This document shows, one piece after another, positions 9,250 to 43,814 of a DNA stretch of 64,000 nt. The stretch's first letter is position 1, and each line of letters opens with the position of its first letter. Position numbers and translations under genes: made by a program. The DNA is from Octopus vulgaris (taxonomy: Eukaryota). Location of the stretch: positions 1,488,001 through 1,552,000 of the forward strand of contig OX597828.1 in NCBI GenBank assembly GCA_951406725.2, read 5' to 3'. Under the pieces are notes generated by a model. The model saw only the letters and a program-made list of their open reading frames with translations. It ran no database searches and was not told the DNA's origin.

Positions 9250-10340
9250 TTCTGAATATATCGTTTTTAATTGCGTGGGTATTATTCTAAGGCCCTTGTA
9301 ATAGTGTCATTCATGGTGGACGCATTCAAAAGGGGTTTATATTTTGTGATAAAATATGACTTTTTGCTAATGCACTGACTACAGGTCCCTGAATTTATAA
9401 AGGGGAAAAATTCTGAAGCTGGGTTGTTCGTTAGTGGCGCAAACGTCGATGTGTTCCCTGAATGCTATTTATCTGTATTGTTGAATTTTGATCTGGGTTC
9501 TATGTAGAGCCATCCTTTGATGTAGACTGTCTTTGGTTAATACATATATTAGGTTTTCCGAAGCACATGTGAAATGGTTTTTCACTGTAAAACGTTGACC
9601 CTGTTTGAAAGAGAACTCCGATCCCTTCAATTAGGTTGGCGCATATACCACAGTTAGGTCTTCCACAATTTTTACTGACGGCTTCAGTGTTGTTTTCGAG
9701 TGTACTTAGGTTTGTGTTAGGAGACTTTTCATGGATCTGGGTTGTCTCTTGCTCTTTATGATGGTGTGCATTTGGAGGATTAAATTCAGTCTGTGTCTCT
9801 TTTTAGTTGGGGAATGTTCTGGAGGACGGTGTCGAAGGCATCATTGTTAAGGGGTGTGTGTGTGTGGAGATGTATAGTAGAGCTTTTGGTTGTAAATCCT
9901 TCTTTAGTTTGGGACGTCTGAGTGCGTAGATGTTGAGTTGTAGGGCACGTTGGAAGCCTACATCAATTAGTGATGGTGGGTAGTTCCTGGTAATGAGTGT
10001 ATCCTTTAGTTCCTGTAGTCGTGTGACTGGTGCTTGCATTAGAAACTATAGTACATATCCTTTTTGCTAAGTTGAAGGGGATATTCATTCTGGTGTGGCA
10101 TGAATGGAACGGTAGATATTGCTTGGAGTCCGTGAGCTTATAGCATATATCTGTTTCTATTTTGTTGTTGGATTTCTTAATGAGGATGTCGAGGAATGGA
10201 AGTTGTTGATGGTTATATTCCATCGCAAATTGAATGTTTACTTCAAGTTCATTTATAAGTGCTAGAAATTCGTTAAATCTCTCTTTACCTTCATGCCAAA
10301 GAATCAAACAGTCATTCAGATACCTCTTCCAGTTATTTTC
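9250..10340 (-). mobile_element. Penelope-like element (Neptune-type) 3' fragment: RT C-terminus and GIY-YIG region
   Basis: WKRYLNDCLILW, LPFLDILI, YLPFHSCH, NIPFNLAKRICTIVS and RNYPPSLI, then linker CGRPNCGIC and FTCASENLIY on the minus strand. Confidence 0.9.
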
Positions 10341-10620
10341 TATATATATATTCACATACACACACACACACATATATATCTATGTGTGTGTGTGTGCGTG
10401 CGCGCGCGCTTGTGTGTATGCATATGTATATATATGTATATTATTTGCTTCAGTCATCGGACTGCAGCCAAGCTGGGCCATCGGCTCGAAAGGTTTTAGC
10501 GGGGCAAATCGACACTGATATTTATTTTTAAATTGTGGGACTTATTCTAACGTTCTCATATACCGAACCAGTGTGGGAGACAAACACAAACACAAAGGCA
10601 CACACACATAGACACACCCT

Positions 10621-24031: not shown

Positions 24032-25530
<1,499 letters not shown>

Positions 25531-36249: not shown

Positions 36250-39200
36250 CATATTTGACTTTTGCTTTGTATTTGTACAAGCTGGTTCTAAGTCTCACCC
36301 AGAGACATCAAGAGATAACAAGTTAGGAGTTCATGTTGGCGTTATGCTTAGGGTGTCATATATTTGGTTTTGCACATAGTGTTGTTCTAGAGAATGTCTA
36401 AGAAAACAAGATTATGAGTTTGTTCTAGAATTTGAAATTATATAGAAATTTTTTTACGTAGGATATGGGCAGTTACCATGAGCACTATCTTTTGAATTTT
36501 TGCCATTTTGGGGTTTCCTGGTATCTGAGCTAGATAGCAATCAGCGCCTTTTGCTATCATTCCCAGGGTACATATGACAACATGTATTGTTTTAGTCTTG
36601 AAGTGCCACATTTTGCTGATTTCTATTTCAAGATCTTTATATTTGCTCAGTTTTTGGTAGGTCTTGACAGATATGTTTATATCGATTGGGACAGTCATAT
36701 CAATGAGGAGGCATGTTTTTTGTCTGAAGTCTTTTAATATAATGTCTGGTCTATTCGTATCTATCTTTCTGTCAGTTTGAATGGTGAAGCTCCTAAGGAG
36801 TGAGATGTGATGATTTTCAAGCACTGGAGGTAGTTTGTGTTCCCACCAGTTTTTATCATGGGGCAGGACCAGGTTTTTGCAAATTACCCAGTGAATATAT
36901 TGTGCTGCTCTATCATGCCTGTTGAGATACTCTGTAGGCGAAAGAAGACTGCACATGGAGACAACATAATCAATGGTTTCATTTTGTTGTTGACATACAC
37001 GACATGTTGGGCTACTGCCGTTCTTTAATATGTTGGCCTGGTAGTTTCTTGTAGATAGGCATTAATCTTGGGCTGCTATGATAAACCCTTCTGTTTCTGA
37101 TTCTAAGCCAGAGGTCATTAGCCATTGATGGGTGAGAGCTTTGTCAGCATCGGCATTATTCGCTCTCTTTGGGTATTTGCCAATGAGAGGTTTTTCTTGC
37201 CCTTTATCATTCAGAATATCTAAGGCCGCAGTTTTAGCACGGGTTTTCATGCGCTTAGCTTTTTCTGTGCTTGTTTCTAGTACGACTAATTCTGGAATTT
37301 GTTGTATTCAGAATTCCTTTGCCTGTTTTGTTACTGAGTATGATGCTTTCTTGTTTTCATGTTTTGAGACAAGTTTTAACATTTAGCCCTCGGTGCTTTT
37401 CAGGTAGGTGTCTAGGCCAATTGTGGCAATATTCATTGTTAATTCCAGTTGTAAAAATCAACGGTTACTCTCTTTTCTTGGCAGGTAAAGTCGTTCTATA
37501 TCTGCCTTAGGGTAATGCATTCTATGCATTGTGAACAATTTTCGTATTTTTCTGTCAAGATTACATGTTTCAGTAATTGACCAGTTAATGATATTGAAAC
37601 TGTAAGTCACGACTGATATGGCTAAAGTATTGATCGCTTCGATCCTGTTTCTCGCATTCATCTCTGTCTTGAGTATTGCCCTTACCCTGCGATAACATAC
37701 TCTTCTGACCCTTTCCTTCATCACTGAATGTTTGATTCTATCCCCTTCAAATACCCCTAGGTATTTGTAGCTCTCCACTGGTTCTAATTCTTTTATGACA
37801 TGCTGCTGGTCAAGGTTAACGTTAGATGTTTCTGCCGTTTTTCCTTTGATAGAGGTAGCTTTTTCACATTTATCGAGGCCAAATTGCATCCTGATTTCAT
37901 AACTGAATTGTTTAACAATCGCTAGTAAGCCCTGGAGTTGTTGGTCATTTTTTGTAAAGAGCTTTAAATCATCCGTGTAAATGAGATGTTTTATACTTTT
38001 ATCAAACATTTTATTGTGCATCATCGAGCAATTTCGAGAGAGGTATTAAGGCTACACAAAATAGGTGTGGTGATAGAGAGTCACCCGGGAAGATGCCACA
38101 TGAAATTCTTACATCTCCAGCATTAATAAATTCATTGTCACTGTTCGAAGTCAGTGTAGTTGTCCATGATCTCATGCTTACAGACAAAAAGTTTCGCAGA
38201 GTAGGTGCTAGTTTATACATTTCCAGACATTTCTTAATCCAGCAAGGTGGTAGCCTGTCAAAAGCTTTTTATAGTCTATCCAGGCTATCGACAAGTTTTT
38301 GTGTTGTTTGTGACAATCTTCTAAGATAATTGTATTGATGAGTAGATGTTCTTTACAACCATAGGACTCACGTTTTCGTTGGCGTTTCTCATACCGGCGG
38401 ATCCTTTGTGCTTTGGCAAGGATATCTTGCTTTAGCTTTTCTTTTATCTCAGGTAAAGCTTTTTCTGTGATGTTGTATTTGCATACTATTTTTGTTTTCT
38501 TCTTGTTGCTTAGTAGTGTTGATTGTCTACTAATTTCGTTAAGAATCGACAGATCTTTTCTCTTTTTTTCTATTTTATTTTTTGGATATTATTTGTCCAC
38601 AGGGTTTGTTTGGGTGGTGGTACTCCTGTTTGGATGGGCTTGAAGGAGCATCCAGCTTCTTTTGTGGCTGCAGTGGCTGCTGCATATATTATGTCATTTA
38701 GCTCAGTGATATTGCCATTTGTTTCTATAGCTATTAGTTCCGTGACGGCCAGGTTTATGCTATTTATTATTGATGTTGTTTTATTGTCCATTTTGATTTT
38801 GGGAAGGTATAATCGGTGGTCCATTCTGAGATCTGTGGTTTTCAGTTCTTTGATTATTCTCATTTTTATAGTATCATAATCATTAAGTTCCCCTTCACTG
38901 TGTCCCGGTTTTAGATTTGTTTTGCCCTCTTTCTCATTCATATGTTTATCTGTGGTGTTCTGGATTGGTGCTTTTTGTTCATTATTATACATTCCTACGG
39001 TCTGGGTTCGTTTACTTCGTTTTTGTTGGAAATGTTACGTCTATCTTCATGTTTTACTATCTCAGTGTTTATATTATTTGGCATTGTTGTGTGGCTTCTA
39101 TCTACATTTTCCTGATGTATTTTCCCATTTAAATGTTCTATTTCTATTTCTGATATTTTCTTTTTTTGCTTTGAGAATATATATTCGTATGTTAGCTAGT

Positions 39201-41625: not shown

Positions 41626-42176
41626 TAAAAATACTTACCCTGTCTGATTAAAATTTTAAAAAGTAAAGAAAAATCTTTAAACATACTTCTGTGCGGTTTC
41701 CACTTTTACTTTCAACTCTTTACTCTTTTACTGTTTTACTTGTTTCAGTCATTTGACTGCGGCCATGCTGGAGCACCGCCTTTAGTTGACCAAATCCACC
41801 CCAAGACTTATTCTTTATAAGCCTAGTACTTATTCTATCGGTCTCTTTTGCCGAACCGCTAAGTTACGGGGACGTAAACACACCAGCACCGGTTGTCAAG
41901 CGATGTTGGGAGAACAAACACAGACAGACAGACATACAGACACACACACACACATATATATACATATATACGACGGGCTTCTTTCAGTTTCCGTCTCACA
42001 GGCTATAGTAGAAGACACTTTCCCAAGGTGCCACGCAGTGGGACTGAACCCGGAACCATGCTGTTCGTTAGCAAACTACTTACCACATAGCCACTCCTAC
42101 GCCCATTCTTGAAATTATATATATTATATATATAAATTAAAAGGGTGGCTTATAAGCAATTACAACCTAAAGGCAA

Positions 42177-42586
42177 AATTGAGGTTACAAAAGTGACGGA
42201 GGGTGCTAGCCAGCACCGCTTATGCTAAAGATAAGAGTTAAATCAACTCTAAAGCCACTAAAGCACTAAATTAATGACTGATACAGGGAGGTAAGTCCCT
42301 AGCGTACATAGCCGTATTGCAATTTCGAATTTTGGTGTAGAACACCTTAATTGTCATCAGCGGCCCTTAACGCCTAGGTTTAAACACAATTTCTCTTGTC
42401 AGTCGTATAAGAAACACCGTTTCAAGGTGTTCTGCTGCAAAATGCGAAATTGGAATACGGTTATGTACGCTAGGGACCTACTTACCTTTGTCAGTCGTTA
42501 ATTTAGTGCTTTAGTGTTAATTTAACTCTTATCTTTAGCAGAAGCGGTGCTGGGCAACACCCTCTGTCACTTTTGTGATCTCTATT
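42177..42586. mobile_element. Diverged fold-back mini-element in (TA)n carrying an HHR
   Basis: Arms about 42177-42349 / 42424-42586. Minus 42364-42311: GCCG-CUGAUGA-CAAUU..AAUUC-GAAA-UUGCAA-UA-CGGC. Confidence 0.8.
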
Positions 42587-42594
42587 AATTGTAT

Positions 42595-42658
<64 letters not shown>

Positions 42659-42664
<6 letters not shown>

Positions 42665-43598
42665 TCAATATAGGGTGGCAAAAAATTTCGTAGAATTTAT
42701 TTGCCACCAGCGGCCTAGTGGGAAAAAATTAAATAGTCATAGACCATTTATAAGTTCAACATCACAATCAAGGAATGGCCATAATAGGCCATTCACCCAC
42801 TAGAAATAACAGCCAAAGCTTCAACCGCAAAATAACATTAATTCCGCAAACCAGGAGAAAATTAAAAAAACATTTACCCTGTAATTTCTTATACGATGCA
42901 CCGTTTCATCTATTGTTTAATGGTAAACTAACCTGATTAAATTAAATCAAGCCAATCTTCCACCATGAAACGGTGCATCGTATAAGAAATTACAGGGTAA
43001 ATGTTTTTTTAATTTTCTCCTGGTTTGCGGAATTAATGTTATTTTGCGGTTGAAGCTTTTGGCTGTTATTTCTAGTGGGTGAATGGCCTATTATGGCCAT
43101 TCCTTGATTGTGATGTTGAACTTATAAATGGTCTATGACTATTTAATTTTTTCCCACTAGGCCGCTGGTGGCAAATAAATTCTACGAAATTTTTTGCCAC
43201 CCTATATTGATTAATTATGAATTTTCTGGTTAATTCCGTAATGGAATCGGCGGCTTATATTTGCTGCCGATAAATTTGGCGCGAGTGCGATGATTTGAAA
43301 ATTTTAGGTCAGATATTGCCGAGGCAGGGATAGAGGTGCCTCGTGATAATATCTGCTCGGATCTGGCTGTTTCTTACTGACGAATCTATCGGCCTATGGA
43401 AGATTGGCTTGATTTAATTTAATCAGGTTAGTTTACCATTAAACAATAGATGAAACGGTGCATCGTATAAGAAATTACAGGGTAAATGTTTTTTTAATTT
43501 TCTCCTGGTTTGCGGAATTAATGTTATTTTGCGGTTGAAGCTTTGGCTGTTATTTCTAGTGGGTGAATGGCCTATTATGGCCATTCCTTGATTGTGAT
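42659..43598 (+). mobile_element. Young non-coding retrozyme/mini-PLE: 5' inverted arm plus 1.3 tandem copies of a 485-nt monomer, in (TA)n
   Basis: Inverted arm 42659-42962; direct repeat period 485 nt (ATGAAACGG at 42965 and 43450). Copies differ by about one T, and there is no long ORF. Confidence 0.9.
43370..43474 (+). ncRNA. Intact type I hammerhead ribozyme
   Basis: UUUCUUA-CUGACGA-AUCUAU...AUAGAU-GAAA-CGGUGCAUCG-UA-UAAGAAA; 7-bp stem I, 6-bp stem II and near-palindromic stem III; predicted cut after 43467. Confidence 0.92.
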
Positions 43599-43814
43599 AT
43601 ATATATATATATATATATATATCTTGCCCACTGAGTGGGCAAACAAAAATATGAGACACAACCTAGTGCTTTTTTATGTTGATAAGCCTGGTACTTATTC
43701 TATTAGTTTGTTCTTGTGAAACCAGTAAGTTATGGGGATGTAAATAAATGAACAGCAGTTGTGAAGCAGTGATGAGGGCGAAACATAGAGACAAAGAAAC
43801 ACACATACATTTAC

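Follow-up and report, generated by a model that had tools for sequence, protein, structure and literature searches.

Animal non-LTR retrozymes are derived from the terminal repeats of Penelope-like elements (PLEs), according to the available text of a 2026 preprint that describes the way in which they move as open (bioRxiv 10.64898/2026.07.22.740005). The origin of the tandem and inverted insertions of PLEs is likewise stated to be open in the available sections of another study (PMC8557442). The window analyzed here, the whole 64,000-nucleotide stretch of Octopus vulgaris DNA, contains an element that shares with animal non-LTR retrozymes, as portrayed in the accessible portion of PMC7229834, non-coding tandem units, a type I hammerhead, low GC content and a highly paired monomer, together with dispersal as monomers to multimers and the presence of PLEs in the same genome. 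Its 485-nt unit lies above the 150-450 bp given in that portion of PMC7229834 and within the 51-972 bp given in the available text of bioRxiv 10.64898/2026.07.22.740005. Unlike the retrozymes described in these texts, the octopus element has a stem II extended by a long hairpin. In Xenopus, 21 families share a pLTR with a PLE (same preprint text), whereas no such match was found for the octopus element, and paired-end head-to-head insertions and 5′ ends at the cut site do not appear in the available parts of the retrozyme descriptions compared (PMC7229834; bioRxiv 10.64898/2026.07.22.740005).

As far as the accessible sections of PMC8557442 and PMC3846280 describe the endonuclease-bearing PLEs (Neptune/Nematis type, Naiad), the element resembles them in (TA)n targeting, partial tandems and an inverted 5′-truncated copy, and a tail at one end only is already known for PLEs. 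Unlike these PLEs, it has no ORF, and its tail measures 104 nt versus 30-40 nt in theirs. No paper dealing with this family, with strict pairing of the ends or with 5′ ends located at the cut of a retrozyme turned up in a literature search covering few subscription papers.

By the features testable here, the element fits the animal non-LTR retrozymes, to which it would belong, and it is confirmed that the copy in the window is very young and that the repeat, 485 nt long and non-coding, includes a hammerhead predicted to cut itself. The preferred reading, with a probability of about 0.8, is that of a young non-LTR retrozyme moved in trans by a PLE that cuts both (TA)n strands and primes two cDNAs 104 nt apart.

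Structure of the window copy

Sequence comparison within the window places the element at 42657-43598, between (TA)n runs. Unit positions (u) are counted from u1 = 42965, the plus strand comprising u1-485 and then u1-150. The features are as follows:

42592-42659: (TA)n target run, left flank
42657-42962, minus strand: second arm, u433-485 plus u1-254, 306 nt; stops at the long 3′ site (A end, ..GCCACCCTATATTGATTAATTAT)
42963-42964: head-to-head junction with 2 extra bases (CC)
42965-43449, plus strand: one full 485-nt unit, with zero substitutions relative to loci L005 and L051
42965-42989, plus strand: 3′ half of the hammerhead, GUA at 42980-82; catalytic core absent upstream
43115-43218, plus strand: 104-nt "tail" between the family 3′ ends u150 and u254, containing a hairpin (43167-43201)
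43247-43270, plus strand: GC-rich hairpin
43310-43355, plus strand: long hairpin, with variants mostly in loops or unpaired columns
43370-43474, plus strand: full type I hammerhead, stem II being extended and helix III palindromic, with its cut predicted to follow 43467
43450-43598, plus strand: partial second unit, u1-150; stops at the short 3′ site (B end, ..CCTTGATTGTGAT)
43597-43622: (TA)n target run, right flank

The sequence-only reading had described an inverted arm and 1.3 near-identical direct copies, devoid of ORFs and flanked by (TA)n, and both the coordinates and the identity bear this out. The direct part (42965-43598) spans 634 nt, or 1.31 units of 485 nt, and the copies within the window differ from one another only by one additional T, located in a T-run of the first unit. 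The additional GC-rich hairpins of that reading were found at 43247-43270 and 43310-43355. Stop-to-stop frames overlapping the element are all of 79 aa or less and an RT-GIY-YIG ORF is absent; the window element is not an autonomous PLE. The monomer folded from cut to cut has a z-score of -6.5, and 0 of 100 shuffles fold equally well. The target-site duplication is unreadable because the insertion lies inside (TA)n. An assembly artefact is ruled out by matching anatomy at more than 100 loci.

Predicted hammerhead ribozyme

The fully paired hammerhead proposed at 43370-43474 is confirmed as a predicted ribozyme of type I, on which Rfam is silent. It comprises stem I (43370-76/43468-74, 7 bp), CUGACGA (43377-83), stem II (43384-89/43446-51, 6 bp) with its long hairpin extension, GAAA (43452-55), helix III formed by the palindrome CGGUGCAUCG (43456-65), and the GUA with a predicted cut after 43467. 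In the Rfam scan of the window the hammerhead remained below the gathering score, giving no match, and the active fold lies 3.7 kcal/mol above the MFE (43360-43490). The palindrome is able to pair with a second copy in a 10-bp helix of -14.1 kcal/mol. A double (dimeric) form has been described for animal hammerheads in the available part of PMC4209133, and for Xenopus retrozyme dimers the accessible preprint text reports eight of nine without cleavage in vitro (bioRxiv 10.64898/2026.07.22.740005).

The sites at 42982 and 43467 had been considered equivalent; the GUA is indeed identical at both, but the one at 42982 lacks a core. Since it is accompanied by the 3′ half only, the locus carries one complete core. 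The second arm (42657-42962) likewise contains only the 3′ half of the hammerhead. Two consecutive complete ribozymes, the arrangement called "active" in the 2026 preprint, are absent from the window copy and present at many other loci of the family.

Judged from its variation among copies, the ribozyme looks to be under selection. Core position 7 is C, G, T or A, while the remaining bases of the 5′ core vary as singletons only (144 aligned pieces), and the cut triplet across the family is GUA or GUC. The palindromes TGCA and TATA form loop III, except at a single locus that carries the non-palindromic TACA; in one subfamily, stem II starts at its base with A-C. Covariation within the family is weak (one pair; 55 of 500 shuffles reach the score). 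A sister family, described below, shows double changes at six pairs, in stems I, II and III, and the cross-family covariation score is reached by 0 of 500 shuffles, in an alignment of 21 rows with few independent events. A search with RF00163 over the genome returned six other hammerheads, none adjoining a PLE ORF.

Distribution of the family in the genome

The genome searched comprises 2.8 Gb, and every reversed-pattern control gave 0. An exact 23-mer of the unit has 870 copies, and the family contains at least 2,265 ribozyme cores, 2,706 ribozyme 3′ halves, 622 exact junctions of the long end with (TA)n and 856 exact short-end junctions. Genome-wide, the monomer is thus multi-copy (2,265 cores) and not single-copy. 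Divergence amounts to 0.63% within loci, 0.70% between opposite arms and 3.5% between loci, and no substitution separates the window copy from L005 and L051. The proposal of a young, multi-copy, non-autonomous hammerhead element residing in (TA)n, with PLE-type anatomy, is supported by these counts, the junctions and the low divergence. Arrays reach about nine units in one arm.

The sister family (L239, L257-L271), with a unit of about 468 nt, has the same architecture and the same two ends, and a first look gave 2,061 candidates. In contigs from runs that are guessed, not recorded, to be RNA, the unit is covered and unique flank bins are uncovered, which is a lead only. No contigs spanning an empty insertion site were found.

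Paired 3′ ends of the insertions

Insertions terminate at u244-260 (the long end) or at u140-168 (the short end), the two family ends lying 104 nt apart. Among the insertions with both orientations in four non-overlapping samples, two of them anchored on one end so that each could reveal one kind of violation only, 111 of 122 have one long and one short end. The individual samples gave 33/39 (after exclusion of nine duplicates and of L004/L012, L024 and L030, which are incomplete or complex), 16/16, 28/32 and 34/35 (3 of these 34 long arms measuring only 14-18 nt and being judged by eye). Independent choice of ends would predict about half mixed. Two long or two short ends were found in none of the 122; the remaining 11 have fold-back pieces or odd ends instead.

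As there is one arm per end site and never the same end twice, the inverted arm is likely a second cDNA. In the window copy the arm had been described as an inverted 5′ arm. It carries a true family 3′ end, and a second cDNA, likely primed from the opposite strand, accounts for it better than an inversion of the 5′ part would. We infer that the tail (43115-43218) is the zone of two reverse-transcription starts. The junctions between arms show overlaps of 1-12 nt or short slipped insertions. Overall, the shapes of the insertions suggest that a Penelope-type RT likely copies the repeat from both DNA strands at once.

5′ ends at the predicted cut

The 5′ offsets, hand-curated from BLAST ends, pile up immediately after the predicted cut. 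In the first set (62 consecutive long-end loci), 30 stops fall within 3,488 nt of the 30-nt post-cut zone versus 83 within 47,628 nt elsewhere, a 4.9-fold excess per base (p 8e-11; 30 of 113 ends). The replicate, made of short-end loci outside the first set with the rearranged L300 and L307 excluded, gave 26 per 3,311 nt versus 73 per 44,096 nt (ratio 4.7, p 3e-9; 26 of 99 ends), and single-arm copies end in the zone in 7 of 26 cases (p 0.0015). The edge at the cut is sharp, with 20 ends in the 10 nt after it versus 1 in the 10 nt before (212 ends). Both arms stop post-cut together 12 and 10 times in the two sets (Fisher 4e-6 and 1e-5). The pile-up also occurs beyond one or more whole units (L213, L055, L231, L286, L288).

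The accumulation of 5′ ends provides indirect support for in vivo cutting at the GUA, and ribozyme-cut RNA likely served as template. The cut site is crossed in 99/129 and 97/123 passes (about 78%), which indicates that cleavage is partial or reversed; with about 22% stopping, the templates would be a mix of cut and continuous RNAs. At the junctions of L242, L222, L290 and L303, where arms end at the cut, short AATTTTT-like additions recur and represent either template-end slippage or templated repair. A notion of uniform 5′ ends was dropped, since the sample concerned had been chosen for spanning the ribozyme.

Penelope-like elements as candidate partners

A GIY-YIG search yielded 6,136 candidates, 150 of which were scored. 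Two young, two-ORF families were characterized: PLE-1, with a 4.7-kb unit and a 781-aa frame comprising RT and GIY-YIG, and PLE-2, with a 4.3-kb unit, a 775-aa frame and proteins that are about 100% identical in 76 of 76 copies scored. The CX4CxxC motif, known from Neptune/Nematis PLEs (motif class from the available part of PMC8557442), is present in both families. Their target is (TA)n, and roughly 30-45 nt separate their two ends. Long and short ends are paired in 3/3 and 8/8 insertions of the PLE families (11/11 together). At L124 (C6:133.34 Mb) and L159 (C4:62.14 Mb), these two very young families have an ORF1 of 479 and 454 aa, respectively, upstream of RT-GIY-YIG; the ORF1 scanned, from one of them, gave no credible Pfam match, and no hammerhead was found in either. 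The RT-GIY-YIG frame overlaps ORF1 in both PLE families, and the PLE-2 frame has its first Met 139 codons from its beginning.

When the unit was compared by BLAST with 50 GIY-YIG loci, 31 PLE-2 loci (among the matches listed) and 20 further loci, the only hits were independent retrozyme fragments. No homology of the unit to PLE-1, PLE-2 or older fragments was found, in a sample to which the Naiad, Hydra and Poseidon clades do not belong; the accessible PMC8557442 supplement lists (TA)n-targeting Naiad and Hydra families for octopuses, and a motif search of one of its spreadsheets gave no match. A descriptor search found no hammerhead in PLE-1 or PLE-2, and 0 of 80 end-anchored loci continue into a PLE ORF. 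The only likeness between PLE and retrozyme is faint, namely CACCC and an AT-rich long end in PLE-2.

Given no common terminal repeat and no hammerhead in PLE-1 and PLE-2, these families are only candidates for the partner. Of the suggestion that a PLE RT/GIY-YIG acts in trans, the presence of intact young PLEs holds, but none was found sharing a terminal repeat; similarly, in the strict sense of a deletion derivative that shares its pLTR with an autonomous PLE, the element is no more than a putative "mini-Penelope". Since the genome contains PLE ORFs that are intact and nearly identical, trans-mobilization can be tested directly.

Alternative explanations

Inverted arms could also arise by self-priming, the long-site cDNA folding back on a palindrome and copying itself, with the second end cut or resolved at the short site. 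Away from the cut, 20 of 59 two-armed copies have symmetric junctions (both 5′ ends at most 12 nt apart in unit position), often at AAATTT or ATTTAA palindromes; this third fits palindrome annealing or fold-back, and from such palindromes self-priming was inferred for rotifer PLEs in the accessible text of PMC3846280, while that of PMC8557442 ascribes the tail to endonuclease resolution. The junctions of the other 39 copies are, however, asymmetric, and the window copy, being asymmetric too, cannot be a simple fold-back: its 306-nt arm (u433 through u254) is not a collinear copy of the 634-nt arm, nor vice versa. Short-end arms are often far longer than their partners (533 versus 26 nt in L248; 1,040 versus 119 nt in L183), and arm lengths are alike, with medians of 499 and 521, all of which makes self-priming unlikely. 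The accumulation of 5′ ends might be attributed not to cleavage but to an RT that stalls at stem I, or to arms easily joined by microhomology within an AT-rich patch, given that the zone is AT-rich and self-complementary (TTAC..GTAA, AAATT..AATTT) and that the ends are scattered over 0-29 nt and not confined to one base. This is quite improbable in view of the sharp edge at the cut, of the several arms that end a few bases from it with slipped extra bases (L242, L290, L303), and of stronger GC hairpins and other AT-rich bins, which show 0.4-3.8 stops per 1,000 nt versus 7.9-8.6. The window also contains LINE-like frames of 195-289 aa (24408-25270, plus strand, and 36400-38045, minus strand), which resemble LINE RT fragments. 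These frames, and the fact that LINEs are left open as partners in the available part of Cervera and de la Pena (PMC7229834), could speak for SINE-like mobilization by a LINE of the RTE/CR1 type, and the palindromic overall shape for a DNA-level satellite or MITE-like palindrome. Both are very hard to credit, as poly(A) and an element-derived repeat tail are absent, the element combines two fixed internal 3′ ends and a one-sided tail with variable inner junctions, and two PLE families of the genome show the same anatomy.

Another question concerns the form of the template. Because the RT starts internally, a cut monomer would yield only a coreless copy of 131 or 235 nt, so that copies able to spread require a multimer left uncut or a circle. 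A circle step in replication is plausible and somewhat favored. Linear templates only (uncut or partly cut multimers), with arrays formed by DNA-level duplication or template jumping and no circle, would alter just this step of the best explanation and come close to an even chance without reaching it. They agree with the 5′-end pile-up at the cut, including that after whole units at the five loci named above. Variant patterns of period 2 or 3 are restricted to one arm, so some array length is likely due to DNA-level duplication, and the hammerhead-less PLE-2 also forms tandems (L154/155, L157/158); on these two grounds long arrays were rejected as proof of a circle. Linear templates alone accord less well with the 18 locus-private variants that are fixed throughout the covering units, including 9 found in both arms, versus 2 variants shared in register between arms, a ratio that favors a monomer bottleneck, or with the abundance of retrozyme circles in coral, mussel and axolotl reported in the accessible portion of PMC7229834.

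Proposed mechanism

For a retrozyme moved in trans by a PLE, tandem transcripts would be partly cut by the ribozyme, probably as a double hammerhead formed via the palindromic helix III. A PLE dimer would bind the tail region, each subunit starting at its own site, and the two antisense cDNAs would extend until stopping or reaching the cut 5′ end of the RNA, to be joined head to head via microhomology or short templated fill. Copies with the full ribozyme would presuppose a template that is either an uncut multimer or a ligated circle. In L1 twin priming, two primed cDNAs also give an inverted head-to-head insertion; in contrast to it, here the second start is fixed, the arms overlap in the template and poly(A) is absent. 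The purified Anolis Poseidon PAc, according to the available part of PMC11167929, cuts and extends both strands of an AT-rich target, is predicted to be a dimer, and in vitro produces a tail delimited by two internal RT start sites. With PAc, however, the start sites are equal on both strands, whereas the octopus element always has one of each, and that part of PMC11167929 shows no reads ending at the ribozyme cut, where the 5′ ends of the octopus element pile up.

The more than 100 informative insertions suggest that two RT start sites are used as a pair and that RNA cut by the ribozyme does serve as template, and the family records the PLE mechanism unusually clearly. A more far-reaching reading, offered tentatively and with distinctly less than even odds, is that of a self-sufficient ribozyme lineage with no PLE-derived terminal repeat, which would parasitize hammerhead-less Neptune-type PLEs via tail mimicry; one RT dimer would copy one RNA twice, once per target strand, from two fixed sites, and the in vivo cut would be preserved as the 5′-end pile-up. 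If true, it would explain both the inverted insertions of PLEs and the spread of retrozymes.

Neighboring and related repeats

The young copy is inserted in the (TA)n flank of an older retrozyme of a second family (42127-42590, about 80% identity), which is arranged head to head with a long and a short end. On the minus strand, with the core near 42360, the older element carries a canonical hammerhead of its own. Its long end has GCCACCC, as in the young family, and near 42400-42425 it shows a decayed likeness to the 3′ half of the young ribozyme. At 9385-10346, on the minus strand, the window also holds the decayed remnant of a PLE, whose identity to the PLE-1 protein is about 48%.

Judging by such motifs, the genome contains many putative ribozyme families. 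Further hammerhead motifs, several of them with long stem II inserts, occur in repeats flanking L129, L089, L133, L065, L083 and L251-L256. An inverted-repeat element at L199:7000-7500 is 72% like u19-110 and has a similar long end.
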